From the NCBI GenBank assembly GCA_903873545.1, contig CAIQPA010000291.1, positions 1 to 44,544 on the forward strand: DNA of 44,544 bases, in the 5' to 3' direction. The first letter of the stretch is position 1, and the number at the start of each line of letters is the position of its first letter. Positions 1 through 23,250 of this stretch are shown here, in pieces. The notes beneath the pieces were generated by a model. That model saw only the letters and a list, made by a program, of their open reading frames with translations, searched no databases and was not told the origin of the DNA. The translations under genes and the position numbers were made by a program. The stretch is from an uncultured delta proteobacterium. GTDB lineage: Bacteria; Myxococcota_A; Bradymonadia; REDH01.

Positions 1-1285
1 CCTGCTCCGTCGTCACGATGGTGGAGCGGGCAGCAGCACCTGCAGAAAGTGCGAACGGTACCGCGACCCCGTCGTCGGGAGGCAGCGCTGCGACCAGGGT
101 GTTCATCGCCTCGTAGAGTGGCAACCCATCCGCGGTCAGGCGGAGGGAGCCGTCGCTGTTCAAGGACAACTCGCGCGATGCAAAGTGACGGCCGCCACCC
201 GGAAGCGCGCTCGACGTCAGGAACAGCGCCATCATGCCGACTGCAGAGACCAGGAGCAGCGGGGCGTGGCGCGGCCGAGAGACGAGCCGCTCGAGGCCAT
301 CCACCGAGGCGATCGCCAAGCCGGGAAGGGCGAACATCGCGTAATGAAAGTCCAGCAGGTCCGCCTGCATCCGCGACTGGATGAGTAGAAAGGCCAGCCC
401 GGGCATCGCCACGCCCAACCAGCGCCAGCCAAAGAGCGGCAGAAGGCCTCCGCCGAGCAGTACCCCGCACAGAATCTCGCTCTTGTAGGCGAGAACCTGC
501 GACAGCGGGAGCGGGCTCGCGTTGTCGAGCATCTGCGCCGCGACGCTGCTGGCGCGATCGACGCTCTGCGGGAACAGCCATCCTCGGATGCCGAACCAGT
601 AGATGGCGACGAAGGCCAGCACCGCAACGATCACGGCGCTGCGCCTCCTCCAATCCATCAGCAGCGAGCGACCGAACGGCGCGGTAGCCATCGCGCCGAC
701 AATGACCATGGCGAACTCTTCGCGAACGAGCAGGGCTGCCGCCATCCATCCGATTGCAACGCTGTCGAAGCCCCGCCGCCGCGCTCGAAGAAGTCCGGCG
801 AGCAGCAACGGTAGCCCGAGCATGTCGGGGCGCAGGTCAAAGAGGAAGGGGTTGATCGCCACAGGCCCCGCCAGGAGCCCCGCGCAAAGCAGCGTCGCCG
901 CCCCCAGCCGTCGGCCCCGGCCTGCACGCTCACCCAGCGCCTCCAGAAATCCGTGATGCAACAGCCCTGCGGTCGCACCGAGCGCCAGACTCTGCGCGAG
1001 CGTCAGTAGCAGCGCAGGATCGCAGAACCGGACGAGTGGCGCGAGCAACAGGAGCACCCAGTTTCCGTGCACGCAGAGCGCATGATTGTTGACCAGCGGG
1101 TTGACCCAATCGCCATGGGCGATGCCCCAGAGGTTTCGGATGTAGATCGCAGAATCGAAGCTCGCAGAGAGCCCCTCGCCGGAGAGCCGAAGCAGGCGGG
1201 CAAGCAGCAGCAGCCCAACGAAGATTCCGAAGACAACGGACGGCCAACGCTCCGGCGATTGTCTCTCCTGCGTCTGCTCGCTCAT
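1..1285 (-). CDS. Polytopic membrane protein, DUF2079-like (start inside the window, 3' end runs off the left edge)
   Basis: Absent from the ORF track because it is open at the window edge. Hand translation of the minus strand from ATG 1285..1283 (MSEQTQERQSPERWPSVVFGIFVGLLLLARLL...HGNWVLLLLAPL...FGWRWLGVAMPGLAFLLIQ...) stays open to base 1. The pattern is a repeated hydrophobic helix. The ATG overlaps the TGA of the upstream GT4 gene (ATGA). No other ORF is listed in this frame. Confidence 0.55.
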   Translation of the reverse strand, partial: MSEQTQERQSPERWPSVVFGIFVGLLLLARLLRLSGEGLSASFDSAIYIRNLWGIAHGDWVNPLVNNHALCVHGNWVLLLLAPLVRFCDPALLLTLAQSLALGATAGLLHHGFLEALGERAGRGRRLGAATLLCAGLLAGPVAINPFLFDLRPDMLGLPLLLAGLLRARRRGFDSVAIGWMAAALLVREEFAMVIVGAMATAPFGRSLLMDWRRRSAVIVAVLAFVAIYWFGIRGWLFPQSVDRASSVAAQMLDNASPLPLSQVLAYKSEILCGVLLGGGLLPLFGWRWLGVAMPGLAFLLIQSRMQADLLDFHYAMFALPGLAIASVDGLERLVSRPRHAPLLLVSAVGMMALFLTSSALPGGGRHFASRELSLNSDGSLRLTADGLPLYEAMNTLVAALPPDDGVAVPFALSAGAAARSTIVTTEQ

Positions 1286-2505
1286 GGTTCGACCTTGTGC
1301 GCCTGCTCCGACTTCGCCCGTTCGTAGACGGCCTCGTGCCGCGCCACAAAGCTTGCCATGCCGAAGCGCTGCTCCGCAAAGCGCCGTGCGGCGCATCGGC
1401 TCGCCTCATCCGTCAGCTGCGTCAGGCCCTGATCGATCGCCCAGCCGAGCGCCTCCACCGTGCGATTCCTCGCGAGAACACCGCTACGCCCATGCTCGAA
1501 AATCTCTGCGATTCCGCCTACCGGACGACCAACAATCGGCGTTCCGCAGGAGAGCGCCTCCACCGCCGTGCAGGGAAGGTTGTCCTCATGGCTCGGCAGC
1601 AGGAAGAGGTCGGCCGCCGCATAGAGCTCGGCGAGCCGCGCCTTGCTCCCGATGCGTCCGAAGCGCCGCGCTTTGGCACCCAGCAGTTCGAGCTCGGCTG
1701 GCAGTCTATCCTCACCGCCAACGAGCCAGAGCGTAAGCGCCGGGTCCTGCGCAAACCGAGGCGCAAGCGCCTTGCAGAGATCGCTAAGCCCCTTGCGGGG
1801 ATCGCCGAGTTGCGCCGCAACGAAGAGCAGCACCCGCTCCGACGCACCGACGCCTTCGGCTGCCCGCGAGGCCGCCCGCAACAATGGCGAGAAGGTCGCC
1901 GTATCAACGCCGTTCGGGATGACCTCGACCTTGCGACCGAACCAGGCGCCGCGCGCTGCGAGCTCCGCGAAGTGAGCGGATGGCGAGATCCCAACCACGC
2001 CTGCTGTCGCCCCGAATCGGCGGTTTGCGTCCCAGGTCGCGGCCGAACGGTCGAGCTGTGCGGGCTGTGCGCCGCGCCCGGTCTCCGGGCAGGAGCCGCA
2101 GCCTCGTTCAAACCGCGAACAGGCGCCTGGGTAGAGGCAGCCGCCGGTGAAACCCGTGTAGTCGTGGAAGGTGAAACAGGTCGGAAGCCGCTCCGCAATC
2201 GCCTGTGCGGTGCGGAGGCCAAAGGCCATGTGATGGTCGTGAAAATGGACCAGTTCGACGCCGTGTCGGGCGAGCAGGAGCAGCAGCGGCGCAGCAGCCA
2301 GGTCCACGCCAAAGGTCTGACGCAACCCCTGCTCCCCGCGGAGTGCGGGCAAGAGCACCGTCTCTCGGTTGCCCGCCGGCTCGCCCCTGCGGTAGACGCG
2401 AAGCACACGGTGCCCTGCTCCGCGGAGGCCTGCCGACAACTCGTCCGCAACGCGGCCAGCACCGCCGCCGGAGGCGTCGCTCCGTGAGAGGACTGCGACC
2501 TTCAC
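1282..2505 (-). CDS. Glycosyltransferase family 4 (GT-B fold, EX7E type)
   Basis: ORF 1282..2559. N-terminal VKVAVLSRSDASGGGAGRVADEL and C-terminal LLPSHEDNLPCTAVEALSCGTPIVGRPVGGIAEIFEHGRSGVL are GT4 signatures. I place the start at GTG 2505, which overlaps the upstream stop as GTGA. The longest ORF reaches 2559. Confidence 0.85.
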   Translation of the reverse strand: MKVAVLSRSDASGGGAGRVADELSAGLRGAGHRVLRVYRRGEPAGNRETVLLPALRGEQGLRQTFGVDLAAAPLLLLLARHGVELVHFHDHHMAFGLRTAQAIAERLPTCFTFHDYTGFTGGCLYPGACSRFERGCGSCPETGRGAQPAQLDRSAATWDANRRFGATAGVVGISPSAHFAELAARGAWFGRKVEVIPNGVDTATFSPLLRAASRAAEGVGASERVLLFVAAQLGDPRKGLSDLCKALAPRFAQDPALTLWLVGGEDRLPAELELLGAKARRFGRIGSKARLAELYAAADLFLLPSHEDNLPCTAVEALSCGTPIVGRPVGGIAEIFEHGRSGVLARNRTVEALGWAIDQGLTQLTDEASRCAARRFAEQRFGMASFVARHEAVYERAKSEQAHKVEP

Positions 2506-4331
2506 GAACGGCCTGTACCGCGGCCGGTGAGCGAGGCGACCACCAGCCCCGGCCACCAACTCACGCCTGAGCGGAGACCGCCAATGCCGAGTGTCGTCAT
2601 CACGCCTCGGCTGGCGCCCTCGTCCATCTCGATATCAAGGATGCGCCGGGCGAACGCCCCATCTGGCAGCAGCGTCAGCCCCTCCCAGGCGCGCCGCGCA
2701 ATGCGCTCGAGCAGCCGGCTGCAGACATCATCCTGGAGCGCGAGCAGCTGCGCGTAGGAGGGCCCGGCAAAGCGCGCCGTTTCCAGAAGCTGTGACCGCG
2801 CCTCCTGCGCCAGTTCGAGCGCCGCGGCTGTGAGCGGCGGTGGCCTGTCGAGCTCCGCCGAAACCACGCCGGCTTCGTCTCGCACCAGCCGCCGCACCGA
2901 GCCGGTCGGCTCGCGGAGCAGCAACTCCCAAAGCCGCATCACGCCTGCGCTTGTCCCCAGCAACGGGGCGCCCCGGCCGGCGGGGATATCGAACACCAGA
3001 CCCTGCTTCGACGCCCGCGAACAAGAGGGCTCGCCGCCTCTCGTGACGCCAGCGTAGCGACCGTGCACCTCGCAATCGGGCAGTACCGCCGCGATTGCAT
3101 CCTGGATGGTTCCTGCCCAGCCAAGGTCGATAACCAGCAGCTTGCGGCGCTCGCCGATCAGGCTCCGTAGGTAGCCGCCAAGCAGCGAACGCTGTTCCTC
3201 TTTCACGGCATCGTACTCGACCGAATTCCGCCGGAGCACCTCCTGCCATGCGGCAATGGTAGCCTCGCTGAGCGGCTCGTCGGCGCCGCCACCAAGCTCC
3301 GAGAGCCATCGCTCTGAGACCCCATCCGGCAGCTCAAACCCGGCCACAAAAGCCCGCATCGACCGCTTCCCGATCTTGCCCGACAGCGTCACACGGAAGA
3401 GCAGATCGCCAGGATGTGCGAGCAGAACCGAACGCCGCGAGAGGCGCAGGTAGTGCCTGAGCCCGGGGGCAGGGTGCAGCGCGTCGCAGGCGGCCAAGAG
3501 AGGCTCCGCGTCCCGCGCGAGAAAGAGCGTCGCCTCCGCCTCAAGCCGGCGCTCCTGCTGGCAGACCCAGGCCGCCGTCGCGAGCACGAAGTGTGCCGCC
3601 TCTCCTGCAAGCGGCTCAGGCCGCCCATCGGCTGCGGGCATGAGGTGGCGAAGCACCGTCCGAGCCGCGGCATCAAACTCTCCATCTGGATCAGTAAGCG
3701 GCAGGTGCGCAGCACGCCAACCGGCCTGGAGCGGACGCACAAAGTCCGATTTCAGGTTGTCGCCGATGTGGAGCCCCCGCAAACCGTCGAGCCCCAGCCG
3801 CGCCTCCACCTCCGCGAAGATGGTTCCGCGCCGCTTCGAGCGCTGCCACTCCGAAGAGGCGACGACCTCGAGCCCGAAGAGGCCGTGCGCTTGGAGTAGC
3901 CTGGTGATCAGCGCTGCCGTCAGCGTGGTGTCGCTCAGGACGAAGTGACGCCGGCCCAGTCGGCGCGCCTCGAGCAGCAGCGCCAGTCCTGTGGGACGCA
4001 CCACCGTGGCGGCAATCTCCGCCTCCAATTCGCAGCGGCAGCCAGCCTCGCGCACCGCTGCAGCGTCGACGCACATGGCGACGCCGAGCGCCTCGTACCA
4101 GTCGGCGATGCTCCACTCCGCCTCCGATTGCGGATAGCCGGCCTCGCGCGAGATCACCCATGCTCTCCTATGACGAAGCACATCTTCGCTCGTCCATGGC
4201 GACAGCCCCAGTCCAACCAAGCCCGACGCTGCATCAGCGGCAACCTCGTCCGGCCCCTTCAGCCGCCGAAGCAGCGTGTCGAACAGGTCGAAACTCACCC
4301 ACGCTGCAGAGGCCAGAGCGCGACGGGCCAT
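2502..4331 (-). CDS. Long-form HAD-superfamily hydrolase with an uncharacterised C-terminal domain
   Basis: ORF 2502..4484. HAD motif I is VSFDLFDTLL and motif IV is HIGDNLKSDFV. About 380 further residues follow (LVIDLGWAGTIQDAI...). I place the start at ATG 4331 (MARRALASAAWVSFDLFDT), because the upstream extension has no domain content and would crowd the divergent gene. Confidence 0.7.
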   Translation of the reverse strand: MARRALASAAWVSFDLFDTLLRRLKGPDEVAADAASGLVGLGLSPWTSEDVLRHRRAWVISREAGYPQSEAEWSIADWYEALGVAMCVDAAAVREAGCRCELEAEIAATVVRPTGLALLLEARRLGRRHFVLSDTTLTAALITRLLQAHGLFGLEVVASSEWQRSKRRGTIFAEVEARLGLDGLRGLHIGDNLKSDFVRPLQAGWRAAHLPLTDPDGEFDAAARTVLRHLMPAADGRPEPLAGEAAHFVLATAAWVCQQERRLEAEATLFLARDAEPLLAACDALHPAPGLRHYLRLSRRSVLLAHPGDLLFRVTLSGKIGKRSMRAFVAGFELPDGVSERWLSELGGGADEPLSEATIAAWQEVLRRNSVEYDAVKEEQRSLLGGYLRSLIGERRKLLVIDLGWAGTIQDAIAAVLPDCEVHGRYAGVTRGGEPSCSRASKQGLVFDIPAGRGAPLLGTSAGVMRLWELLLREPTGSVRRLVRDEAGVVSAELDRPPPLTAAALELAQEARSQLLETARFAGPSYAQLLALQDDVCSRLLERIARRAWEGLTLLPDGAFARRILDIEMDEGASRGVMTTLGIGGLRSGVSWWPGLVVASLTGRGTGRS

Positions 4332-4505
4332 GTCGAATCGGAAGGCGTACAAGAGGAGATCCCGGGTAGGGCGACGGGCAATCGGATGCGCTTTCGCCAA
4401 TGCCGAGCCGCCGCTTTCTCTTATCCCTTTCGACGCCACTCCGCTACGATACCCTTCATCGCAGCCGTGCCGTCGGCTCGTCACTCGTCTCGCCGCGCCG
4501 GTCCC

Positions 4506-6533
4506 ATGCAGTCTTCTCGCATTCCGCTCCTGGCGGGAATCCTCGCAGCATTCCTCGCCGTGTTGACCTTCCAGTCAGCGCTCAACGCCGGACTTGCCTT
4601 CGACGACCTCATCTTCTGGCGCGACACCTCGTGCTGGCGTGTCGACACGTGGGGCGAGGTCCTCACCCTGCCGACCATCGACGCCTGCTCCTACCGGCCC
4701 GTCCGCTACATGTCCCTCGCCATCGACTATCGCATCTGGGGACGCGAGATCTACGGCTACCACCTCACCAACCTGCTCCTCCACGGCATCACCACCTTCC
4801 TCGTCTACAACCTCATCCGTCGCGTCATCCGCGACCCGCGAGCCGCCGCGATCGGCACCGTCCTCTGGGCCATTCACCCCGTCCACACCGACACCGTCAC
4901 CTACATGTCTGGCCGCCGCGATCTGCTCGTGACCCTCTTCTACGTGGCTGCGTTGCTCGCTGCGCCGCAGCCCTCGCAGAGCACCCTGCGGAAGTGGTTC
5001 GGCGGCGTCGTGGCGGCGAGCTGTTTCCTGCTCGGCATGTTCAGCAAAGAGATGGCTGCGACCGTCCCGGCCACCCTCCTGCTCATGGTGGCGCTCGCTC
5101 CCATGATGGCTGCAGCCAGCGAGGGCATCGCCTTTCCCAGCCCTTGGCGGCCCATCTTCTCCGCCGTCTACCGCTTCTTCATCCCCATCGTCATCGTCAC
5201 CGGCGCCAGCGTTATCTTTGTCCTCTGGGCCGTAAAGGTCGGCCACGTGACCCAGATCTCCCAGAACATCCGCGGCGACAGCCTCCACACCCATGTCGCG
5301 ACCGTCATGGCTGCCTACGGACGCTACGTGGAACTCATCGCCTACCCGTCGCGACTCGTCGGTGACTACAGCGCCTTCCCCAACGCGGCCGGCTTCTCAG
5401 ACCCGCGCGCTCTCGTCGGCCTCGCCTTCGTCGGCCTGGTCTGGCTCGGCGGACTCTTTGCCGTCGCGCGCGCCCCGATCGTCGCCTTCGGGCTCCTCTT
5501 CTTCGGCGTGACCATGCTGCCGGTCAGCCATATCATTCCCCACCACGAGCTCCTCGCGGAGCACTACCTCTATCTGCCGCTCATCGGACTGGCTGTCATC
5601 GTCGCCCGAGGTCTCGAACTGGCCTTTGCAGCACCGCCCCGCCGCGCGCTCGTCGCCCTGACAGTCGCCGCGCTCGTCGCTGGTGGCTACGGCGCGCGCG
5701 TTCAGGCACGCAACAAGGAGTTCTCCGACCCCGTCGCCTTCGCCGCGCGGGTCCTCGAAGCCTTCCCCACCTCGCAGCGCGCCCGGCTCCAACTCGCCCT
5801 CGAGTACCGCAACCGCAACCAGATCGAAGCCGCCATCCAGGCCCTCGGTCAGGTGCTGAGCCTCGCCCAGCCCGGCGAGGACAACTTCTACGTCGCCCAC
5901 ATGAACCTCGCCAACAGCTACGCGCTCCTCAAGAAGTTCGACCTCGCAGAGGAGCATCTGCGCCAGATCCTCAAACCCTTCCCCAACCATCCGGAGGCGC
6001 TGCGTGTCCTCGCGCTCATCCGCGTCGAGCAGGGCCGAGGCGAGGAGGTCGTCGACATCCTCAAACACCTCTGCACCGTACCCCGCCTCGGAGCACAGGT
6101 CCCGCTCGATACCGCGATCACCCTCATCCGACTCGGCCGTTACGCCGAAGCGGAGACCTATGCCGAGCAGGCGCTCTCGCGCGACGCCGAAAACAACTAC
6201 GCGCTCTTCCAGTCTGGCATCATCGCCATGCGACTCGGCAACCTGCCCAAGGCCAAAGCGCGCTTCGAGCGGGTCCTCTTCTTCAACCCCACCGACGCGG
6301 TCGCGATGGTCCGACTCGCCTACGTCGAAGGCAAGATGGGGCGCACGCAGGTTGCAGACGCGCTTGCACAAGAGGCACTCCGCCTCCGCCCCGAACTCGC
6401 GCAGAAGAACCATCCCGACATGGAGGTCGAGGTCGCGCGCCCCGAAGGCAGTGGAGCCTCCGCTCCCGCCGCGCAGCCTGCAGCACCGTCACCAGCCGCC
6501 AGCCCCAAGCCGGCGAAGCGTCGCACTCCCTAG
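4506..6533 (+). CDS. TMTC-like GT-C membrane glycosyltransferase (PMT_2/DUF1736-type N-terminus) with C-terminal TPR repeats and a Pro/Ala-rich tail
   Basis: ORF 3945..6533, real start taken at ATG 4506 (MQSSRIPLLAGILAAFLAVL). The DD..F motif (AFDDLIFWRD), YRPVRYMSLAIDYRIWG and GYHLTNLLLHG, plus about 10 hydrophobic helices, are typical of bacterial TMTC/PMT-like proteins. The C-terminal half shows TPR periodicity (ARLQLALEYRNRNQIEAAIQAL..., YVAHMNLANSYALLKKFDLAEEHL...). Confidence 0.8.
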   Translation: MQSSRIPLLAGILAAFLAVLTFQSALNAGLAFDDLIFWRDTSCWRVDTWGEVLTLPTIDACSYRPVRYMSLAIDYRIWGREIYGYHLTNLLLHGITTFLVYNLIRRVIRDPRAAAIGTVLWAIHPVHTDTVTYMSGRRDLLVTLFYVAALLAAPQPSQSTLRKWFGGVVAASCFLLGMFSKEMAATVPATLLLMVALAPMMAAASEGIAFPSPWRPIFSAVYRFFIPIVIVTGASVIFVLWAVKVGHVTQISQNIRGDSLHTHVATVMAAYGRYVELIAYPSRLVGDYSAFPNAAGFSDPRALVGLAFVGLVWLGGLFAVARAPIVAFGLLFFGVTMLPVSHIIPHHELLAEHYLYLPLIGLAVIVARGLELAFAAPPRRALVALTVAALVAGGYGARVQARNKEFSDPVAFAARVLEAFPTSQRARLQLALEYRNRNQIEAAIQALGQVLSLAQPGEDNFYVAHMNLANSYALLKKFDLAEEHLRQILKPFPNHPEALRVLALIRVEQGRGEEVVDILKHLCTVPRLGAQVPLDTAITLIRLGRYAEAETYAEQALSRDAENNYALFQSGIIAMRLGNLPKAKARFERVLFFNPTDAVAMVRLAYVEGKMGRTQVADALAQEALRLRPELAQKNHPDMEVEVARPEGSGASAPAAQPAAPSPAASPKPAKRRTP

Positions 6534-7279
6534 CGAGCCCGGCGGCTGCGGATAACCGCCAGCTCCGCACCGGCCCGCAAGAAGTCACGACCGCGCACGC
6601 TGCTCCCCTTCACATCCTGCCAGGCCAGGAGGGGGACCTCGATAAGATAGGCTGTCGCACGCCGCCCGGTCGTGCGCAGCCATGCAGTGTCGAGGCGCTG
6701 GAGCAGCTCCACATCGAAGATCCAGCGGCTCGCGAAGGGCTCCTGCAGCGCGCTCCGGAGCGTCTCATCTGCCAGAAAGATCTTGGCGCCACACTGCGTG
6801 TCGTAGACGGGCAGGTCGAGCGTCACAGAGGCCGCCGTTGCGAACATCCGACCCAGCACATGGCGAACCGGATTGCGGTCGATCTCCCTGCCCAGCAGCC
6901 TAACGCGTGACCCGATCAAGGCTCGCGCCTCGCCGTGGCGTGCCGCCGCCGCCGAAAACTCCTCCAGCGCCTCAAGCGGTGTGGCGAGGTCGGCGTCCCA
7001 GAACCCAACCCACGCAGCCCCGCTTCCCAACGCGTCCTGCATCCCCACCCGGACCGCCTCGGCTTTCCCGCGGTTCTGCGCCAGCGAGAGCGTCCGAACG
7101 CGCCCTGCCGAGGTCGCGGCAAAGGCTGAAATGACCGCCTCCGTCCCATCGCTGCTGCCGTCGTTCACCAGCAGGAGTTGCAGCCCGGGAAAGCGCCCGA
7201 GTGCCTCTCCGAATCGGCCCGCATCGAAGCGATTCGCCTCGTTGTAACAGGGCACAACCAGGGTCAACGTCTCGAGCAT
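6530..7279 (-). CDS. GT2 glycosyltransferase, ALG5/DPM1-like polyprenol-phosphate sugar synthase
   Basis: ORF 6530..7561, start taken at ATG 7279 (MLETLTLVVPCYNEANRF). Also LLLVNDGSSDGT, WDADLATP (DxD-like) and a C-terminal LLAWQDVKGSSV motif resembling the W.E..GSK box of dolichyl-phosphate glucosyltransferases. Confidence 0.8.
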   Translation of the reverse strand: MLETLTLVVPCYNEANRFDAGRFGEALGRFPGLQLLLVNDGSSDGTEAVISAFAATSAGRVRTLSLAQNRGKAEAVRVGMQDALGSGAAWVGFWDADLATPLEALEEFSAAAARHGEARALIGSRVRLLGREIDRNPVRHVLGRMFATAASVTLDLPVYDTQCGAKIFLADETLRSALQEPFASRWIFDVELLQRLDTAWLRTTGRRATAYLIEVPLLAWQDVKGSSVRGRDFLRAGAELAVIRSRRAR

Positions 7280-7287
7280 CACCCGAC

Positions 7288-8052
7288 TCAAGGAAGCTTC
7301 CGAAGCAGCGCAACCAGACTCACCCCGCGCGCATAGGCAGGAAGCCCCGTGTCGATGGCCGAAACAAGCGCGCGCCGCTCTCCCGCAAAGAGCCGCGTCA
7401 GCAGCCAATTTGCGGCATCGGGCGGCATGGAGAGATCGGTCCCCGCTTCGCCCGACGACCGCCCCCGCAGCCGATTCACGCGACGCACTGCCGACACCAC
7501 GGGATGGAGCAGCGCGTTGAAGTGGCTCAGCAGGCGAACCTCCACAGGCCGGCCGCTCCACTCCCAGCGCAGCATCTCCTCATCGTACCGTCGATAGTGG
7601 CCAAAGTGCTCGTCGTGCGCGCTCCAGATGCTCATGTCTGCAGGTACCGTGATGAGCAGGTGTGCACCCGGCTTCATCGCTTCCAGAACCGCAGCCAGCG
7701 CCTCTCTCGAGCGCTCAATATGCTCCAGCACATCGAGCATCAAAACCACCTCGGCCCGGCCGAGCGCCGCCGGCAGGGGCTCACCCGGCTGCCAGACCGT
7801 AAAGTGAAGCTGCGGAAAGCGCTGCTGCGCCGCCGCAATCCCCGCCGCGTCCGGGTCGACACCCGCGCACCGATAGCCGCTCCCGACCGCAGCCAGCGTC
7901 CCGCCGGTGCCGCAGCCGAACTCAAACATCTCTGCCCCGGCGCCGGGGCTGCCCAGCCGCTCCACGATGGCCCGCAACACGCGCTGGCGACCCACAAACC
8001 ACCAGTGGCGCGACTCCAACTCAGCATGCAGCTCAAATTGCTCGCGTTGCAA
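7288..8052 (-). CDS. Class I SAM-dependent methyltransferase
   Basis: ORF 7288..8202. SAM motif I is MFEFGCGTGG, and the ESRHWWFVGR box and VLMLDVLEHIE are present. I prefer the TTG start at 8052, preceded by GGAGG with a 5-nt spacer. Codons upstream of it are visibly GC3-poor, and the 8202 start would overlap the divergent gene. Confidence 0.7.
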   Translation of the reverse strand: MQREQFELHAELESRHWWFVGRQRVLRAIVERLGSPGAGAEMFEFGCGTGGTLAAVGSGYRCAGVDPDAAGIAAAQQRFPQLHFTVWQPGEPLPAALGRAEVVLMLDVLEHIERSREALAAVLEAMKPGAHLLITVPADMSIWSAHDEHFGHYRRYDEEMLRWEWSGRPVEVRLLSHFNALLHPVVSAVRRVNRLRGRSSGEAGTDLSMPPDAANWLLTRLFAGERRALVSAIDTGLPAYARGVSLVALLRKLP

Positions 8053-8188
8053 GGGCGCCTCCAGAAGACAGCATCTCCCTGCTCGGCTAGCAGGGGCAGC
8101 AGCCAAACTCCACCCGCGCCACGGCATTTGGCTTGCGAACCACCGCCGCCACTCGGTAGCAGTGAGCTCTCTCTCGGACGCTGGAAAC

Positions 8189-10036
8189 ATGGACGGAAAC
8201 ACGCATCAGCCAGCTCCTCGGACTGCCCCGCCAGGCGGTCTCTGGCTGTTGCTCGTCGCAGGGCTGCTGCTGGGGCTCGCCACGACGTGGAGGGTCACAG
8301 GCGACCCCGATGCCTTCTGGCATCTCGCAACAGGAAGGCTCGCCGCAGCGACCAGCTCCACACTCCCCACCGACCCCTTCTCCTTCTCCCATTTTGGACA
8401 GCCGTGGCGGGTCAAAGACCTCGGCGGCGACCTCCTCCTCTGGGGCGCCTTCTCCGTTGCAGGATATGCAGCCATTGCGCTGTTAGGTGCGCTCTTCTTC
8501 CTGCCGCTGCCCGCCGCGCTCCAGTCGCTCGCGCCGCGACGTGGCGGCCTCCTGCCCGTGCTGCTCGCCGCTCTCTACCTTGCTGCGGTTTCGATGAGCG
8601 CCACGCCCCGGCCGCGCCTCTTCACCCTCGCCCTCTTTCCACTCGCGCTGGTCCTCTTGGAGCAGGCCCGCGCGGCCGCGCAGCGCCGCGCACCAGGGCG
8701 TGAACTCGCCGCCTGGTTCGGGGCCACCGCGATGCTCGTGGTCACCTGGCTCCAGCTCCATCGCGGCGGCCTCGCCATCGCGCCGCTTCTCGTAGGCCTG
8801 CTCCTCTACCTTGTGACGGCACGACTTCTCGCGCGCTGGAACCCAGCGCGACAGCTCTTCGGGCCACCGCCCGATCGCCGTGGCCTCATCGCTGCGGCAC
8901 TGCTCACCGTTGCGCCCCTCGTTGCCGCCCTGATGCACCCCGCAGGCCAGGGACTGCTCACCTCCACCTTCGGTGTCATGAACACCGAAATCTACCGCCA
9001 GCATGTCTCCGAGTTCCAGCCCATCTCCCTGCACGAGGCCTGGCAGCACTTTCCGACGCTCCTTCTCCTCACCGCCTCCGCACTGGTCGCGGCCCTCATC
9101 GCTCTCCGCAGGCTCGCATCTGGCGATACAGCCTTCGCAGGCATCGCCTGGCCAGCGGCGGTCCTTCTCCTCTTCCTCGCCCAGGCGCCGGGGTCGGTGC
9201 GCTGGCTCCCCTATCTCGCCGCCGCCGCGATCTTGCTCCTGGTCTGGTTCGCCGAGCGCCAAGCCTTCCGGCTGCCAGCGTTGCGGTCGGCCTCGGCGGT
9301 GACTGCCGCCACGGCAATGGGCGCCGCGCTCATCCAAGTGACCGCGGTCCACGAACTGGGTGTGGGCGAGTCGCCGCAGATGCCGGCGGCCGCCATCGCC
9401 TTCGCTCAGACCCACACACTCGGGCCCCGCGTCCACAACGCCTTTCACTTCGGCGGCTACCTCATCTGGGCCGGCGCACCGCGCTTGCAGACGCTGGTCG
9501 ATGGCCGCAACGACATGGTCTTCGATGCACCGTTCTTCCTCGACTGCGTGACCGCAGAGGACGATCCTGCCGCCTTCCGCGCCCTCGAGAAACGAATGCC
9601 CAGTGACTGGGTGCTGGCCGCCAATCCCGGCGTCAGCCCCGCCTTCGGCTTCCTCGACCGAGACCCCGCCTTCGTGCCCCTCTTCTGGTCCGAACCGGCC
9701 ACCATCTACGCCCGTCGCGGCCGCTACCCTTCGCTCGAGGCGCAGGCGCTACGCTTCATTCGCCCCTCCGATCCCGTGGCCTCGCTTGGCGCGGCCCTAC
9801 GCGCGGCCGCTGGCGAGCGCCGCCAGCTTGCGGCAATCGAGGATGAGCTCCTCCGCATGCACGCAGCGTCGCCCGACGGCGTCCAGAGCAACAGCCTCCT
9901 CGTCCTCTTCTACGGCTCACTGGGCCCCGCCGCCGTCGAACAGCGCGACGCCTACTGGGGCCGGCTCCGTCAGCGAGCACCCGACCACCCCGCCGTGCGC
10001 GAGCTGGCACTCCGCCTCAACCTCCCCCTCGACTAG
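8189..10036 (+). CDS. Large polytopic membrane protein of unknown family (possibly GT-C-like) with a soluble C-terminal domain
   Basis: ORF 7907..10036, start taken at ATG 8189 (MDGNTHQPAPRTAPPGGLWLLLVAGLLLGL). DPDAFWHLATGRL and DPFSFSHFGQPW loops are followed by many hydrophobic helices. The C-terminal roughly 200 aa are hydrophilic. Confidence 0.6.
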   Translation: MDGNTHQPAPRTAPPGGLWLLLVAGLLLGLATTWRVTGDPDAFWHLATGRLAAATSSTLPTDPFSFSHFGQPWRVKDLGGDLLLWGAFSVAGYAAIALLGALFFLPLPAALQSLAPRRGGLLPVLLAALYLAAVSMSATPRPRLFTLALFPLALVLLEQARAAAQRRAPGRELAAWFGATAMLVVTWLQLHRGGLAIAPLLVGLLLYLVTARLLARWNPARQLFGPPPDRRGLIAAALLTVAPLVAALMHPAGQGLLTSTFGVMNTEIYRQHVSEFQPISLHEAWQHFPTLLLLTASALVAALIALRRLASGDTAFAGIAWPAAVLLLFLAQAPGSVRWLPYLAAAAILLLVWFAERQAFRLPALRSASAVTAATAMGAALIQVTAVHELGVGESPQMPAAAIAFAQTHTLGPRVHNAFHFGGYLIWAGAPRLQTLVDGRNDMVFDAPFFLDCVTAEDDPAAFRALEKRMPSDWVLAANPGVSPAFGFLDRDPAFVPLFWSEPATIYARRGRYPSLEAQALRFIRPSDPVASLGAALRAAAGERRQLAAIEDELLRMHAASPDGVQSNSLLVLFYGSLGPAAVEQRDAYWGRLRQRAPDHPAVRELALRLNLPLD

Positions 10037-11919
10037 GGCTCGACCCCGAGCGTCACCACCTGCTCTCGGCCCGCGCCCTGTTCCCACTCCACCTGATAGA
10101 GGGAATGCGCAGCAGCCTCCTTCGACGCGTCGAGCGTGATCATCAGCTGTGTGACGCCCGCGGGCAGACCGCCAAACCGGGCCTCGGCCATTCCGTCGGC
10201 CGGAATCTGGCCAGGCGGGCGTGTCATGCCGGCGAACCAGCCAATCGAGTCCGTGTAGCCCAGCCTGATCGAAACCGGTCGTGTTGCAGCCTCCGGAGGA
10301 ATCCGGAATCGAACCCGCGCAGAACCGGGATGCGCGGTGAACTGCGCCGGTGCGACCGGCACGAATCCCCGCGCACCGAACTGCGCCAACATGCCATCGT
10401 CTGCGCCCACGAGCAGCGTCCGGGAGAAGTGCACGCCCTGCGTCGCGATGCGGTCTACAAACCGCCGCCGTGTAGTCTCGCAGGCCTCCGGACCGTCGCA
10501 GGCCAGCGACCGCGCGAAGTAGGCTGGTGGCGCCGGCGGCGTCAGCACGCCGGCAACGCCGTGCACGGCATGAATCGCCGCGTTGCTGACCCACATCTCC
10601 GGCAGCGCACCGCCGTCCCACAGGGCGTAGTAGGCTGCGTTCTGAAGCGGTGAAACATAGCTGTTCGGAGAGGTGCGGCCGCCCGAGACCACAGCAGGCA
10701 TCACCAGCCCGGGGCCCGTCCGCCCCATCCGTGAAACCTCCGTCCGGACCTCCTCGCCCATCGCTGTTGCTCCCACGAGGCTTGCGCCGAGGAAGACCGC
10801 GATGAGCGCGCTGTAGGCCGGCAGAAAGAGCCGCCACTTCCCGCCCCAAGCGGCGAAGGGCAGCAGCAGCGTAAAGAGCGCCGCCAGCACACGTGGCTGC
10901 GCGTAGGCCCAACCCGGAATGTGAAACGGCACCGCGAAGTAGAGGCCGAGGAGCGCCGCGGTCGCTACGCCCACAAAGAGCCGCGTGCGGCGCCCACCCT
11001 CCGAACGCCCACGAAGGTGCAGCAGGAACGCAGTGAAGGCCACGATGACCGGCAGCAGTCCGAACGCGGAGAACCCGCCGAACGATACATCCCACAGGTT
11101 CGTAATCTGTTCCAAGAGCGGGAGTCGCTGCACGCCCAGCCCCTCCGAGACGCCGTTCGTTGCCTGTGTCGCAGTCACCACGAGCGTGGCCCAGATTGCG
11201 TAGAGCCCCCCCGGAAGAAACCCGATCAATGTCAGGCCGACCCGGGCAAACCGGGTGCTCAATCGGTCGGTCGCCAGCAGCAGCGCCAGCATCCCTGCCA
11301 CCACCGCGGTCAAACCGAACGCTACTGCGTGTGTGATTGCCAGCAGCATACCAGCCACCATCAACCCAAGCAGATACCAAATCTTACGACCCGAAAGCGC
11401 CCGCAGCGTTGCCGCAATCGTGAGCACCCCCAGCGCCATGCCGAGCGCGAAATTGTCGAATCCCATCGCCTGCGGAAAGGCGCAGGTCAGCGCCGGCGCC
11501 AGCAGAAAGCCGATGGGCCGCCGCTCGCCCGTTTCGCGACCGCACAGCAGCATCGCCGCCAGCAGCAGGCCGCCCGCCACCGTCCGCGTGAGTTTGCCTA
11601 CCAGCGCCGGCTCCAGCGAAGCGAACGGAACACTCAGATAGACCGACAGCTGCGAGGTTGGAGCGAAACGCCCCTCCAGCATCCCCTCGAACAGCCCCCG
11701 CTCCCGGAGCACCCGCGCAAAGAAGGCGTGCACCGGCGTGTCCTGGCCCGGCACAAAGGCCGGCACCCAAACAACCGCCAGTGCGAGCAGACAGAGAAAT
11801 ACCGCCACGGGCCAGTACCAGACCGCGTGCGGTTCAAACGGATTCTCCCGCGGCGCAACCTCTTCGTCAGCCTCGTCGTCCGCCCGGGCTACCCCCGACC
11901 TCTCGACGACAACCTTCAC
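10033..11919 (-). CDS. Large polytopic membrane protein of unknown family with a soluble C-terminal domain
   Basis: 628-aa ORF. An acidic N-terminus is followed by about 10 hydrophobic helices (WYWPVAVFLCLLALAVVWVPAF..., MVAGMLLAITHAVAFGLTAVVAGMLALLL...). The start overlaps the upstream stop, and the stop overlaps the convergent gene (CTAG). Confidence 0.6.
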   Translation of the reverse strand: MKVVVERSGVARADDEADEEVAPRENPFEPHAVWYWPVAVFLCLLALAVVWVPAFVPGQDTPVHAFFARVLRERGLFEGMLEGRFAPTSQLSVYLSVPFASLEPALVGKLTRTVAGGLLLAAMLLCGRETGERRPIGFLLAPALTCAFPQAMGFDNFALGMALGVLTIAATLRALSGRKIWYLLGLMVAGMLLAITHAVAFGLTAVVAGMLALLLATDRLSTRFARVGLTLIGFLPGGLYAIWATLVVTATQATNGVSEGLGVQRLPLLEQITNLWDVSFGGFSAFGLLPVIVAFTAFLLHLRGRSEGGRRTRLFVGVATAALLGLYFAVPFHIPGWAYAQPRVLAALFTLLLPFAAWGGKWRLFLPAYSALIAVFLGASLVGATAMGEEVRTEVSRMGRTGPGLVMPAVVSGGRTSPNSYVSPLQNAAYYALWDGGALPEMWVSNAAIHAVHGVAGVLTPPAPPAYFARSLACDGPEACETTRRRFVDRIATQGVHFSRTLLVGADDGMLAQFGARGFVPVAPAQFTAHPGSARVRFRIPPEAATRPVSIRLGYTDSIGWFAGMTRPPGQIPADGMAEARFGGLPAGVTQLMITLDASKEAAAHSLYQVEWEQGAGREQVVTLGVEP

Positions 11920-12737
11920 GCGCTGGTCCTCTCACCGAGCTGATAGAAGAGATGGCTGAAGACGGTCCGAACAGGCGTCGGGATCTCGCTCTCCTCAATC
12001 TTCGCCAACCGTTGCACCAGCTTCGGCACTTCGCCGCCCGCGTAGATGGCTTCGATGGGCGCCGTCCACTCCAGGTCCTCAACCCGGTCGCCGCCCGAAA
12101 GGTGCAGCCGCACATCGCGGAAGCCCGGCGGGTCGGGCCACCACGGCATGTCTAAATGGCCGAACTCTGCAGGATGCAGGCCGCGACCGCGGTAGACGTC
12201 GCGCACCCGATTGGGGAAGAAGTAGGCCGTCTCGCCATGCGTCCAGGGCAGCCGGAAGGCCGCGTGCAAAAGCTTGTGCCATGGGTAGCCCCAGTTGAAA
12301 CCGTTGCAGTGCACCGTCAGCACATGCCGGTTCGACAGCCGCGCCATCTCACCGATGATGTCGCCAAAATCCGGACGAAATCCTACCGACACGAAGTTCC
12401 AAACCAGGTCGAACGACCGATCCGGCAGCCCCGTTGCAGCCGGCGTCCCCTCATAGACAGCCGTCACCTTGTCGATGAGTCCGAGCCTGCGCCAGACATC
12501 GAGCCCCTGCTCTTCCGGGCGATAGAGCGTCACATGCACACCTGCCCGCGCAAGCGCCAAACTGTAGATGCTGGGCATCGCCTTCGCCCCGTCGGCCGGA
12601 AGCTCCAGCGCCGTCTTGATCCCCCGCTCCCGCACCAGCCGCGTGAGCAGCGCATCCAGCCGAAGCCGGTCGTAGGTGATGCCAAGCGGCTCTGTCTCGC
12701 GCTGCCGAACAGCGCCCTCAAACTTCGTCTGGCTCAT
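11916..12737 (-). CDS. Hypothetical protein, possibly a degenerate methyltransferase/Rossmann-like fold
   Basis: 273-aa ORF, translationally coupled at both ends. IKTALELPADGAKAMPSIYSLALARAGVHVTL ... FDLVWNF has the spacing of SAM-MTase motifs I-III but lacks a GxGxG box. Confidence 0.45.
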   Translation of the reverse strand: MSQTKFEGAVRQRETEPLGITYDRLRLDALLTRLVRERGIKTALELPADGAKAMPSIYSLALARAGVHVTLYRPEEQGLDVWRRLGLIDKVTAVYEGTPAATGLPDRSFDLVWNFVSVGFRPDFGDIIGEMARLSNRHVLTVHCNGFNWGYPWHKLLHAAFRLPWTHGETAYFFPNRVRDVYRGRGLHPAEFGHLDMPWWPDPPGFRDVRLHLSGGDRVEDLEWTAPIEAIYAGGEVPKLVQRLAKIEESEIPTPVRTVFSHLFYQLGERTSA

Positions 12738-14143
12738 ATCAACCCTCTCTGCCGATAGTACCGGTAGGTCGCACCCAGCATCTCTTCGACGCTCTGGTGT
12801 TTCGGCACATAGCCGAGTTCGCGCTCCGCGCGCGAAATGTCGATCTGGCGGTCGGCCAGAAACAGGTCGATCCGCTCATCGGTGATGGGCACATTCCAGT
12901 CTGGCAGGAACCTGCCGGCCTGCGCGAAGGCGCGTGCTGCCAGACGGGCCGCGGCCACCGGAATGGCGACGTGGGTCCGAGGTCCACCTGTCAGCGACTG
13001 CGCCACCTCCAAGATCTCGCGCATGGTGTGCCGGCCACCGGAGGTCACCAGATAGACACCGCCACCCGTCCCTCGCTCCGTCGCCAGAAGCAGCGCCTGC
13101 ACCACATCATCCACGTCGATGAGCGGCTTCTGGATATCCAGATTGTTGCCCAGGAAGGGAAACAGGCCCGCCTTCACCAGCTTGAACATCTTGAGCAGTT
13201 CGCTCCGCTCTTTGCCTGGACCGGCGATAACGCAGGTGCGGACGATGACCACATTCAGGCCCCGCTCCGCCCGCTCGAGCAGCAGCAGCTCCGCCGCCCG
13301 CTTCGACCGCTGATAGGGCGTCTTCGGCTGGCACGGGCTGTCTGGCCCCACCACCGCAGTCTGCGGTGCACCCATCGCCGCCGTGCTCGAGACCTGCACA
13401 AAGCGCAGCCCCGGAACCGTCATCACCTCGTCGGCCAGGTTGGCCGTTCCATCTGCATTGACCGCCATGAAGGCCGCATCGGCCGCGCGCCCCGCATCAA
13501 AGGTTGAAGCAACGGCGCAGGCGCAGTGAACCACTGCCGACACGCCCTCGCATGAACCGCGAAGCGATAAGGCGTCGGTCACATCACCCGTATGAACCTC
13601 ATCGTAGAGACCGGCAATCGGCCCCAGGTTTGAAGTCGGTCGCGCCAGCACCCGCACAATCCATCCAGCCGCCTTCGCTGCCGCAACCACGTGGCGCCCT
13701 AGAAAGCCCGTCGCACCGGTCACCAGCAGCCGCTTGGCGACCGGCTTAGAGGTTGGCGTCGAAAATTCAGTAGGCTCGCTCTTCGGTGCGGCCTTCGCAG
13801 CCGGCTTGGGCTCGCTCTTTGGAGCAGCCTTTGAAGCGGTCTTCGGCGTGGGCGTGGGTTTTGGTGCGGCCTTTGCAGCCGCCTTCGCAGCCGGCTTGGG
13901 CTCGCTCTTCGGTGCGGCCTTTGCAGCGATCTTCGGCTTGGGCTCGCTCTTCGGTGCGGGCGCTGCCTTTGCAGCCGTCTTGGGCTTGGCTGCAGCCTTA
14001 GGCGCCGGCTTGGGCTCGCTCTTCGGTGCGGCCTTTGCAGCCGGCTTTGCGGCGGGCGCTGCCTTTGAATCTGGTGATGGGGGGGCAGGAGCGGGCTTCG
14101 CCGCCGGGGTAGCGCGCTTCTTGGGCGTTGCGTCAGACATCAT
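12734..14143 (-). CDS. NAD-dependent epimerase/dehydratase (extended SDR) with a roughly 130-aa N-terminal Ala/Lys/Pro-rich repeat extension
   Basis: ORF 12734..14212. The SDR core has LLVTGATGFLGRHVV (GxxGxxG) and YQRSKRAAE (YxxxK). The N-terminus is built of AAPKSEPKP-type repeats. The start is uncertain: ATG 14143/14140 (MMSDATPKKR) or GTG 14212. Confidence 0.8.
   Translation of the reverse strand: MMSDATPKKRATPAAKPAPAPPSPDSKAAPAAKPAAKAAPKSEPKPAPKAAAKPKTAAKAAPAPKSEPKPKIAAKAAPKSEPKPAAKAAAKAAPKPTPTPKTASKAAPKSEPKPAAKAAPKSEPTEFSTPTSKPVAKRLLVTGATGFLGRHVVAAAKAAGWIVRVLARPTSNLGPIAGLYDEVHTGDVTDALSLRGSCEGVSAVVHCACAVASTFDAGRAADAAFMAVNADGTANLADEVMTVPGLRFVQVSSTAAMGAPQTAVVGPDSPCQPKTPYQRSKRAAELLLLERAERGLNVVIVRTCVIAGPGKERSELLKMFKLVKAGLFPFLGNNLDIQKPLIDVDDVVQALLLATERGTGGGVYLVTSGGRHTMREILEVAQSLTGGPRTHVAIPVAAARLAARAFAQAGRFLPDWNVPITDERIDLFLADRQIDISRAERELGYVPKHQSVEEMLGATYRYYRQRGLI
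13733..14128 (-). repeat. Imperfect in-frame tandem repeats encoding (K)AAPKSEPKP(AAKAA) units
   Basis: The DNA unit CTTGGGCTCGCTCTTCGGTGCGGCCTTTGCAGCC recurs with small variations along the plus strand. The peptide APKSEPKP occurs four times, plus a fifth truncated APKSEP copy before TEF. Confidence 0.8.
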
Positions 14144-14268
14144 CGACCAGGGTAGGGGGATCGTTCGGAGCTGTCGGAGCCGCTCGGCTTCGTTGACACC
14201 TCCGATCTCCACTTGTTACCTAGTTCGTCGCGTGAGCGGAAGTCCACGCGCGCAGCGGAGGTCATTTC

Positions 14269-21572: not shown

Positions 21573-22124
21573 ATGCTCATGCCAATTCACGCATCTCACC
21601 GCCGCGGCTTCTCTCTCATCGAGCTGATGATCGTTGTCTCGATCATCGGCGTCCTTGCCTCCCTGGCCGCCGTCGCCTGGGGCAAGCAGGTCCGCAAGGG
21701 CCGCGAGGTGAAGGTCAACCAACTCTTTGCCTCCCTCGCCACGGCGCAGGAGACCTACCGCAGCTCACGGGGCCAGTATGCAGGCGCCTCTGCCTGGTCT
21801 CCCACGGCGGTACCGCAGAGCGTCGATGCCCCTTTCGCACCGGTCGACGGCGTATTCTCGGCGCTCGGCATCAACGTGCCGGCTCAGAGCCGTTTTGCAT
21901 TCTATGTGCAGTCGGGAACACCGGCAGACACCTGTGGCACGCCCCCTGCGATCAGTGGCACGAGCTTCAGCTCAGCGGAGGCCTGTGATGCTGTGGCTGC
22001 GGGCTCCTTCTACTGGCAGCTGTTTGCAGTGAGCGATCAGGACGGCGACGGCACCAACGCGCGGTTTGTGCTCACCAGTGGCATGACAGAGGGCGTGCCG
22101 GTCGTCGTGAACTCGGCCGAGTGA
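21573..22124 (+). CDS. Type IV pilin-like protein (prepilin-type N-terminal cleavage/methylation domain)
   Basis: HRRG|[22 protein letters not shown] class III signal. Two Cys (ADTCG...AEAC) and an SDQDGDGTNARF motif near the C-terminus. GGAG lies upstream, and the start is ATG 21573 or 21579. Only 15 nt after the pilR stop. Confidence 0.8.
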   Translation: MLMPIHASHRRGFSLIELMIVVSIIGVLASLAAVAWGKQVRKGREVKVNQLFASLATAQETYRSSRGQYAGASAWSPTAVPQSVDAPFAPVDGVFSALGINVPAQSRFAFYVQSGTPADTCGTPPAISGTSFSSAEACDAVAAGSFYWQLFAVSDQDGDGTNARFVLTSGMTEGVPVVVNSAE

Positions 22125-22343
22125 GCCGGGCCTGCCCAAAAACAGACCCGCGGTAGCGCTCGGCTGACAAAATTGGGCGTAGGAGCGGGAGCGCCGGCTA
22201 GGTGTCCGTAGGTACACGGGATAGCCATTGTCGCCCTCGGTCACTCGGCACGAAGCGTCCGAAAACATTCTTTTCTAGTTTACCCAATCATTTCATTGTC
22301 ATATCGTCTTTTGCTGCCATGTGATCTTTCTCTTCTGCAGACT

Positions 22344-22359
22344 TGGCACGAAGGTCGCA
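22344..22359 (+). promoter_or_regulatory. Candidate sigma54 (-24/-12) promoter of pilA copy 1
   Basis: TGGCACGAAGGTCGCA has GG and GC at the canonical 12-nt offset (consensus TGGCAC-N5-TTGCA). It lies 58 nt upstream of ATG 22418, inside an AT-richer 293-bp intergenic region and downstream of a sigma54 activator gene (pilR). Confidence 0.6.
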
Positions 22360-22417
22360 TCTATCCAGACATCCAACCCCGGTGGCAATTCCGCCACCAC
22401 ATTTGAGGAGAGAAGCC

Positions 22418-22948
22418 ATGAACAGCATCAACAATCGCAAGGGTTTCACGCTCATCGAGCTCATGATCGTCGTCGCGATCCTCGGCATCCTTGCCGCGGT
22501 CGCCATCCCGGCCTTCCTCAAGTACATCAAGCGCTCGAAGACGACCGAAGCGACGATGAACGTCCGCAAGCTGTACGACTCGTCGGTCACCTACTTCGCT
22601 GGTGAGCACACCCTCGCGACGGGCGCCATCGTGTCGGCCCAGTTCCCCATCACCACCGCGACCCTTCCGACGCTCGCCACGATCGGCGACGTCAAGATCA
22701 CGACCGCTCCCTCCTCGTGGGACGGCGTTGGCACCTGGAACGCCCTCCAGTTCTCGGTCTCTGACCCCTCCTACTTCGCCTACCAGTACGACTCGGCTGG
22801 CACGACCAACGACGCCAAGTTCACGGCTACCGCCTTCGGTGACCTTGACGGCGACCAGATCTACTCGACCTTCACCCGCGTCGGTGCGGTCGTTGACATG
22901 GAAGTCAAGGGCGGCGCCGGTCTCTTCATCGACAAGGAGATCGAGTAA
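22418..22948 (+). CDS. pilA: Major type IV pilin PilA, paralogue 1
   Basis: ORF 22343..22948, start taken at ATG 22418 with GAGGAG 7 nt upstream. MNSINNRKG|[24 protein letters not shown] class III signal with Glu5. 176 aa, no Cys. Confidence 0.85.
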
Positions 22949-23035: not shown

Positions 23036-23191
23036 CGTCCGCTCCGTTCCCCGCCTGACAACTTTTGTCTCTTCTGGCATCGGCCAGCGGGACCCTCAGC
23101 GGCCCTCTTTCGGGCGATGCCTTTCGCGCAAGGCCCCGTATTTCCTCGCGCCACTTATTTTGTTTGCTTGCGCGCCTGAAGATCGTCACAA

Positions 23192-23207
23192 TGGCCCAGC
23201 TTGTGCA
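23192..23207 (+). promoter_or_regulatory. Candidate sigma54 (-24/-12) promoter of pilA copy 2
   Basis: TGGCCCAGCTTGTGCA has GG and GC at the canonical offset. It lies 44 nt upstream of ATG 23251. Confidence 0.5.
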
Positions 23208-23250
23208 ACACTCCACACGTTACCCTCTCCCCCTAAGACATCGAGGCACC

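Follow-up and report, generated by a model that had tools for sequence, protein, structure and literature searches.

The window analysed here, a 44,544-nt contig (CAIQPA010000291.1; GC 66%) from an uncultured freshwater Bradymonadia bacterium, carries two tail-to-tail genes for predicted glycosyltransferases, i.e. a 675-residue polytopic GT-C enzyme with a C-terminal array of tetratricopeptide repeats (TPRs; 4506..6533, plus strand) and a 249-residue GT2 enzyme of the ALG5/DPM1/GtrB/ArnC-like type (6530..7279, minus strand). The reading that we favour, with confidence and doubt about evenly balanced, is that the GT2 makes a lipid-linked sugar, which the periplasmic GT-C/TPR enzyme then transfers onto an acceptor that is probably a protein. 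Pairs of a donor synthase and a transferase are already known, and that in the window is a further example; the gain for this gene pair is modest, being a refinement of annotation together with a hypothesis, and not a new kind of system.

Both genes are confirmed at these coordinates. The plus-strand open reading frame (ORF) 3945..6533 holds the proposed ATG at 4506 (MQSSRIPLL..., 675 aa) and the minus-strand ORF 6530..7561 holds that at 7279 (MLETLTLVVPCYNE..., 249 aa); gene calls for near-identical proteins in other assemblies start at the identical residues, and codon-position GC is strongly coding (0.68/0.46/0.85 for the transferase and 0.70/0.52/0.80 for the GT2). The same GC measure and the homologue starts rule out the upstream ORF extensions, 3945-4505 and 7280-7561, as coding. 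The two stop codons share the CTAG at 6530-6533, giving a tail-to-tail overlap of 4 nt. The original prediction had proposed this tail-to-tail pair with the same gene limits, and the motifs that it quoted were all found, as AFDDLIFW, SYRP and HLTNLLLH in the transferase and VVPCYNE, VNDGSSDGT and WQDVKGSS in the GT2.

The GT2 most likely belongs, as judged from its sequence and modelled structure, to the ALG5/DPM1/GtrB/ArnC polyprenol-phosphate class, as a soluble or peripheral protein, and it is predicted to synthesise a polyprenyl-phosphate sugar. It matches Pfam Glycos_transf_2 (E 5e-16), has a DxD motif at D95-A-D97, and belongs to a very abundant family (>8,000 matches), the alignment of which has the invariant blocks PCYNE, DGSxD, WDADLATP, YDTQCGAK, FDVE and W.D..GS. 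The AlphaFold2 (AF2) model (pLDDT 92) retrieves ArnC, the Pyrococcus dolichyl-phosphate mannose synthase (DPMS) and GtrB at Foldseek ranks 1-16 (E 3e-12 to 8e-10; query TM-score, TMq, 0.63-0.71), followed by chondroitin polymerase domains and GpgS. ArnC is also the sole match in a phmmer search against the PDB, and the E. coli protein aligns with the GT2 at 97.5% probability in hhalign; sub-threshold NCBIfam matches include PgfS (E 4e-7), ArnC and PpgS. Among relatives with 50-55% identity the name dolichyl-phosphate beta-glucosyltransferase recurs, and in four relatives the protein is fused to a GtrA_DPMS_TM membrane domain (PF04138). The ALG5/DPM1 assignment of the original prediction is thus borne out by the fold search, the ArnC alignment and the names of the relatives. 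The likeness to ALG5, DPM1, GtrB and ArnC, which includes the GT-A fold and the DxD motif, has one clear exception, in that the window GT2 is without N- or C-terminal membrane helices (no transmembrane (TM) segment was found, the maximum 19-residue hydropathy being 1.08). It consists of the catalytic part only, a layout that recalls the split or fused DPMS-type arrangement, the latter as in the four fused relatives.

A processive synthase, named in the original prediction as one outcome that would overturn it, was looked for by structure prediction and Foldseek, and is ruled out by the length of 249 aa, the lack of a TM helix and best matches that are lipid-phosphate glycosyltransferases. We consider it very improbable that the GT2 is a cytoplasmic, GpgS-like enzyme working on a soluble small acceptor and giving, together with the HAD phosphatase, GT4 and methyltransferases encoded nearby, a methylated cytoplasmic oligosaccharide, with the membrane transferase unrelated. 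Its lack of a TM helix and the HAD, GT4 and two methyltransferase genes in the vicinity would suit such a role, and soluble GT2s of the GpgS type come close to the polyprenyl-phosphate enzymes in TM-score against the model (0.60-0.67), a point that weighs against our reading. The GpgS E-values are worse, however, with polyprenyl-phosphate glycosyltransferases coming first by this measure; the sequence searches match families of the ArnC, PgfS and PpgS type only, with GpgS giving none, and close relatives are named ALG5-type or, in some cases, fused to the GtrA/DPMS membrane domain.

On the basis of its sequence, the transferase is assigned to a very large bacterial family of PMT_2/TMTC-like GT-C enzymes. 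Its membrane domain spans residues 1-~400 (4506-~5705) and is followed by ~6.5 TPRs (residues ~405-632; 5718-6401) and a Pro/Ala-rich, disordered tail (residues 633-675). In the AF2 model (pLDDT 92.9), the helices agree with hydropathy and with positive-inside loop charges in indicating 11 TM helices, with the five outer loops, which contain all the motifs considered below, on the same, periplasmic, side as the TPR array. A search with residues 1-400 gave 146 relatives, many of which carry PMT_2, PMT or DUF1736 and some of which are named protein O-mannosyltransferase; the relatives with these domains reach E-values of 1e-40 to 1e-50 against the window domain. Among 24 aligned N-terminal domains, PMT_2 was found in 12 (best 4e-12), TMTC_DUF1736 likewise in 12/24 and PMT in four, and an exhaustive search with the N-terminal domain returned 67,361 cluster representatives at E <= 0.001, with 29,456 at E <= 1e-10. 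A public variant of the protein, P0003, is without 23 residues (a FPTSQRARLQLALEYRNRNQIEA-type stretch, ~residues 420-442, in the first TPR) and is otherwise identical.

Comparison with the seven motifs defined by Eisenhaber et al. for TMTC1-4, the animal endoplasmic reticulum protein O-mannosyltransferases of cadherins (PMC7801869), reveals partial conservation. The residues invariant in the family (D33, D34, D74, H124, P125, R137, D139, K181 and P339) coincide with M1, M3, M4 and the YRP of M2 (PMC7801869). M1 (DD) corresponds to D33 and D34 in the first outer loop, which are invariant in 24 sequences and nearly so in 80; M3 (RxD) is present as R137-R-D139 and M4 (KE(T/Q)xxT) as K181-E-M-A-A-T186. 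The order of 11 TM helices and then a lumenal or periplasmic TPR array is likewise shared with the TMTCs, and relatives of the window protein match TMTC_DUF1736. The divergences are that of M2 (SHKSYRP in TMTCs) only CSYRP is left, with P65 conserved and the H and K absent, and that the donor is probably not dolichyl-phosphate mannose.

Several further observations weigh against a TMTC-like GT-C assignment. M5 in external loop 4 (EL4) is DY (D287-Y288) instead of DW, and M7 in EL5 is EHxxY (E352-H353-x-x-Y356) instead of ERxxY; the M7 arginine, which is strictly conserved in TMTCs (PMC7801869), occurs only in the most distant members of our alignment. When the first 420 residues were compared with Pfam, the best match was TMTC_DUF1736 at E 0.084, with 13.3 bits against a cut-off of 27, and the full-length protein gave TPR families only (residues ~405-640, E down to 1e-16). 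All 50 matches listed by Foldseek for the full-length model are TPR proteins, which filled the match list, so that the search is uninformative on the membrane domain and the GT-C fold is unconfirmed by fold search. Against PDB sequences the N-terminal domain profile gave no match and the full-length profile gave TPR matches only, among them a BcsC entry; in hhalign the N-terminal domain profile aligned with E. coli ArnT (as a single sequence) in a positionally sensible manner, though with an insignificant probability of 3.7%. The assignment therefore rests on transitive homology, motifs and topology. The TMTC-like architecture of the original prediction holds with respect to the 11 TM helices, the TPR array and the relatives, whereas its N-terminal module itself reaches no Pfam GT-C model.

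In the mechanism that we envisage, the GT2 would act at the cytoplasmic face of the inner membrane, moving one sugar from a nucleotide sugar to polyprenyl phosphate; by analogy with ALG5 the sugar is most likely a hexose from UDP-glucose. Without a membrane helix, the GT2 must bind the membrane peripherally or via a partner, a candidate being the only GtrA/DPMS-TM protein of the genome, encoded outside the window. The gene for this GtrA-like protein is free-standing and adjoins that for a polyprenyl synthetase on another contig. The methyltransferase co-transcribed with the GT2 may modify the sugar or the product. The lipid-linked sugar would then be flipped by an unlinked or unrecognised flippase and used by the 11-TM GT-C enzyme, its DD, SYRP, RxD and KExxxT loops facing the periplasm, on an acceptor that the TPR array may hold. 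Among the ORFs scanned in the window and in the 5.5 kb further upstream in the relative L003, no linked flippase of the GtrA, ArnE/F, MATE or Wzx type was found, which is a point against this scheme. What the analysis shows is the structure of the genes, the families to which they belong, the fold class of the GT2, the predicted topology and the synteny, whereas the coupling of the two enzymes, the sugar, its flipping and the acceptor are inferred.

Synteny bears in both directions on the proposed coupling of the two enzymes. The contig scan gave only near-identical relatives, which are freshwater Bradymonadia metagenome-assembled genomes that share the block, and deeper synteny was therefore taken from contig look-ups and a class-wide genome search, in which 44 of the 113 genomes had a match and from which 20 loci were cut out. 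A second genus (L009/L032) retains the trio of GT-C/TPR, GT2 and methyltransferase genes, at 58-61% identity, along with the HAD, GT4 and DUF2079 genes. An analogous trio occurs on an unrelated metagenomic contig (L014:2665-6753) as one co-directional unit of a Methyltransf_23 gene (29% identical to that of the window), a gene for a YfhO-like membrane protein of 860 aa and an ALG5-like GT2 gene; the combination of methyltransferase and GT2 is thus seen again beside a membrane transferase of another class. Further support for coupling is that the 81%-complete genome has a sole ALG5-like GT2 and a sole strong TMTC-like gene, the genus of the window likewise having one of the latter.

On the opposing side, the pair is convergent and not co-transcribed, and its adjacency is limited to its own genus and one neighbouring genus, i.e. 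the pairing is young. Members of the same clade that are 44-49% identical to the transferase (L006/L018, L007, L010 and L011) have no GT2 beside them. Instead, the transferase gene of L006/L018 and of L007 ends in a 4-nt overlap with a homologue of the next gene but two in the window, which encodes a 615-aa orphan polytopic membrane protein with a C-terminal soluble domain (8189..10036, plus strand); in L010 the transferase gene adjoins a homologue of a second such orphan, of 628 aa and also with a soluble C-terminal domain (10033..11919, minus strand), and in L011 neither orphan has a homologue beside it. The 615-aa orphan is the deep conserved partner of the GT-C/TPR clade, translationally coupled to it in other genomes. 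The claim in the original prediction of a minimal donor-plus-transferase pair is narrowed accordingly, there being adjacency in two genera only, no GT2 beside the more distant clade members and no linked flippase.

The same observations raise the question of whether the adjacency is incidental, a methyltransferase-GT2 operon having entered between an ancestral GT-C/TPR gene and the gene for the 615-aa partner protein. The GT2 would then serve another transferase or a whole-cell pool of lipid-linked sugar, and the GT-C/TPR enzyme would use a donor made elsewhere. The GT2-free 4-nt overlaps in L006/L018 and L007, the position of the convergent methyltransferase-GT2 unit of the window exactly between the GT-C/TPR and 615-aa genes, and the lack of a recognisable GT-C neighbour at two of the three ALG5-like GT2 loci sampled elsewhere are all as expected of such an insertion. 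Against this, two genera that have diverged to 58-61% identity both retain the arrangement with the insertion, and the GT2 has no ALG5-like counterpart elsewhere in the 81%-complete genome; overall, we regard an incidental adjacency as unlikely and as the weaker of the two principal rivals to coupled transfer onto a protein.

With respect to the acceptor, a secreted or envelope protein undergoing Ser/Thr O-glycosylation is most likely. The original prediction had likewise preferred a protein to a glycan, a choice that we infer rather than observe, the argument being from the TPR array and from three precedents, the TMTCs, TfpW and the Pgf system. TPR arrays also occur in polysaccharide-export scaffolds, which counts against a protein acceptor, and the TPR domain is therefore no proof of one. 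The principal competing interpretation, which we consider possible while giving it distinctly lower credence, is that the locus encodes a periplasmic assembly line for a glycan or lipoglycan, in which the GT2 feeds the DUF2079, GT-C/TPR, 615-aa and 628-aa proteins. The acceptor would then be a lipoglycan, a lipopolysaccharide or exopolysaccharide side chain or a cell-wall glycan, and the TPR array a scaffold or glycan-binding module, in the manner of mycobacterial lipomannan/lipoarabinomannan synthesis or of a GtrABC-type three-component modification.

Several observations are in keeping with such an assembly line. Four large polytopic proteins, the GT4, the HAD protein, two methyltransferases and the SDR (a short-chain dehydrogenase/reductase) are encoded in one conserved block, and at least three further large polytopic proteins at the locus could equally use the GT2 donor. 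The deep partner of the GT-C/TPR clade is another polytopic protein and no secreted protein, the ALG5-like GT2 gene in L014 adjoins that for a YfhO-like protein, and glycan decoration by three-component systems is widespread (PMC11127046). On the other hand, the characterised TPR-carrying GT-C enzymes (the TMTCs and, by prediction, TfpW) act on proteins, and both orphans are without detectable similarity to GT-C profiles. In the 615-aa orphan, TM1 is followed by an invariant DPDxxWH motif, and none of 24 members matches a Pfam family; its being a divergent TMTC-like or ArnT-like GT-C was ruled out at the profile level (probabilities 0.2% and 0.1%), and the 628-aa orphan has no profile similarity to TMTC-like domains or ArnT. 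The scanned ORFs of the block include no initiating phosphotransferase, Wzx/Wzy or dedicated exporter. As the original prediction had stated, no Wzx, Wzy, Wzz or initiating phosphotransferase family was found in the Pfam scan of the window, which covered large ORFs (mostly >=200 aa), and the same is true of the ORFs scanned in the 5.5 kb further upstream in L003.

Comparison with known systems supports our favoured reading of transfer onto a protein in some respects, with clear differences in each case. TfpW, of Pseudomonas aeruginosa group IV (Pa5196/PA7), is a GT-C pilin D-arabinofuranosyltransferase encoded after pilA, with a DDx motif in the first periplasmic loop and a periplasmic C-terminal domain for which TPRs are predicted; its donor, a polyprenyl-phosphate monosaccharide, is supplied by cytoplasmic enzymes distinct from it together with a GtrA-like component (bioRxiv 10.1101/2020.04.19.049825). 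Compared by its published description, TfpW is similar to the window transferase in being a polytopic GT-C with a loop-1 DD and a periplasmic TPR C terminus, and, in Persicimonas caeni and two further Bradymonadia genomes, pilA is followed directly by a paralogue of the window gene. The window gene itself is not downstream of pilA and its clade is not pilus-linked, and the window donor synthase is an ALG5-like GT2, in contrast with the DprE1/DprE2 arabinose pathway of TfpW; no D-arabinofuranose donor families (DprE1/DprE2, phosphoribosyltransferase) were found among the large ORFs of the window. As far as the literature was searched, TfpW is the only bacterial GT-C enzyme with a (predicted) TPR domain and a known substrate, and one review of bacterial O-glycosylation mentions neither TfpW nor GT-C enzymes.

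In the Pgf system of Streptococcus mutans, PgfS (GT-A), the epimerase PgfE and the GT-C enzymes PgfM1/PgfM2 O-glycosylate surface and membrane proteins on the extracytoplasmic side (bioRxiv 10.1101/2024.05.05.592596). The logic of a GT2-type synthase with a GT-C enzyme is shared with the window, the GT2 of which matches PgfS sub-threshold, whereas the Pgf system comes from a Gram-positive organism, has GT-C enzymes that lack a TPR array and is encoded in one operon. The three-component systems (GtrABC; GT136 pentofuranose) also combine a lipid-sugar synthase with a GT-C transferase (PMC11127046); however, they decorate O antigens, and their GT-C enzymes have carbohydrate-binding modules and not TPRs, while the window has no linked flippase. 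The locus adds a clean case of a TPR-carrying GT-C accompanied by a lipid-sugar synthase and a methyltransferase of its own.

As a single acceptor, the leading candidate is plausibly one of the type IV pilins or some other part of the pilus, and the pilin link was examined within the Bradymonadia. A TMTC-like gene lies <=10 kb from pilus genes in 8 of ~20 Bradymonadia loci outside the genus of the window, at three positions and in four families, related genomes being non-independent observations. The positions are directly after pilA (L008, L020 and L022, i.e. the three pilA-linked genomes mentioned above), after the pilHI transporter (L026 and L027), and upstream of pilB beside methyltransferase, SDR and 628-aa genes (L023, L024, L030 and probably L028). 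The occurrence of TMTC-like genes at three insertion points, spread over four families, nevertheless speaks for a genuine association of this enzyme family with the pilus locus. In the maximum-likelihood tree, the window gene falls with the orphan-coupled genes in one clade (support 99/99) and the pilus-linked genes form other clades, which weighs against the pilins as acceptor here; the link thus applies to paralogous clades, not to that of the window, and the connection to the pilus made in the original prediction is to be restricted in this way. The window transferase gene lies ~8 kb upstream of pilB, with six genes between, and ~15 kb from the pilins, and two genes for TMEM260-like GT-C enzymes in the pilin operon of the window are, by their position, stronger candidates for modifying the pilins.

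Around the type IV pilus locus, the Bradymonadia encode as many as six large polytopic proteins, four of which match GT-C-type Pfam families, and the TMTC-like and TMEM260-like enzymes are bacterial counterparts of animal protein-specific O-mannosyltransferase families. If the Bradymonadia enzymes glycosylate pilins or other beta-sandwich adhesins, it is conceivable, although in our judgement quite improbable, that domain-specific O-glycosylation of adhesion proteins is ancestral to both families and that the eukaryotic enzymes came from a Myxococcota-like donor. The repeated embedding of TMTC-like genes in the Bradymonadia pilus cluster makes cultured relatives, such as Persicimonas caeni, practical organisms for obtaining a first substrate of the family.

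The remaining genes of the block, namely a GT4, a HAD hydrolase, a methyltransferase and an SDR with pilB following, are as described in the original prediction, except that there are two methyltransferase-like genes, the second of which is matched sub-threshold only. At the start of the window, on the minus strand, lie a gene for a DUF2079 polytopic membrane protein (2..1396; Pfam DUF2079, E 5e-27), the C-terminal (3') end of which is off the window and a full-length copy of which is present in L003, and a gene for a cytoplasmic GT4 family glycosyltransferase of GT-B fold (1282..2559; assigned by Pfam and kept in L001-L003 and L009); a literature search for DUF2079 found nothing. Divergent from the GT-C/TPR gene is that for a HAD-hydrolase domain protein (2502..4331, minus strand; Pfam), a ~400-aa C-terminal part of which has no assigned function. 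Its likely start is the ATG at 4331 (609 aa), rather than the GTG at 4484; the L009 orthologue has 621 aa and its alignment begins at residue 53. The S-adenosylmethionine-dependent methyltransferase of 254 aa (Methyltransf_23; 7288..8052, minus strand) is encoded upstream of the GT2 in the same operon, with an 8-nt gap; its ORF is open to 8202, and its likely start is the TTG at 8052, preceded by GGAGG. Homologue lengths and the GGAGG site favour these two starts, which give divergent intergenic regions of 174 bp (4332-4505) and 136 bp (8053-8188). The longest-ORF starts (GTG 4484 for the HAD gene and GTG 8202 for the methyltransferase) would leave nearly no space for divergent promoters.

Beyond the two orphans lie, again on the minus strand, the second methyltransferase-like gene (11916..12737; sub-threshold Methyltransf_11, E 0.0014) and a gene for an SDR of the HpnA/3beta-HSD type (12734..~13735, with the ORF open to 14212). 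Across the class, this pair of genes is retained immediately upstream of pilB, the methyltransferase-like gene being 58-70% identical. It adjoins pilB in several Bradymonadia families (L008, L023, L024, L028 and L030), where a 628-aa orphan homologue frequently accompanies it; such homologues also adjoin this pair upstream of pilB in sister genera. The position by pilB may reflect either functional linkage to the pilus or a conserved neighbourhood. The N-terminal extension of the SDR ORF (13736-14212) has a flat codon-position GC of 0.64/0.67/0.69, as against 0.70/0.49/0.76 in the SDR body, and may be untranslated or a low-complexity repeat.

After the SDR gene come pilB, pilT, pilC, pilS and pilR, and then three genes of pilin type that carry N_methyl motifs. 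One of these is divergent (21573-22124), and the other two are near-duplicates in tandem (22343-22948 and 23065-23781); both duplicate pilins have a Thr/Ser-rich stretch after the N-terminal helix. The region after the pilins (23817-34283) contains a gene in the pilG position and genes for an SDR, a DegT aminotransferase, a PilH/I-like ABC-2 transporter, a 226-aa protein without assignment, the first TMEM260-like GT-C, a second DegT and, convergently, the second TMEM260-like GT-C. In L026, which is from another family, the post-pilin gene order is the same, but a TMTC-like gene follows the second DegT.

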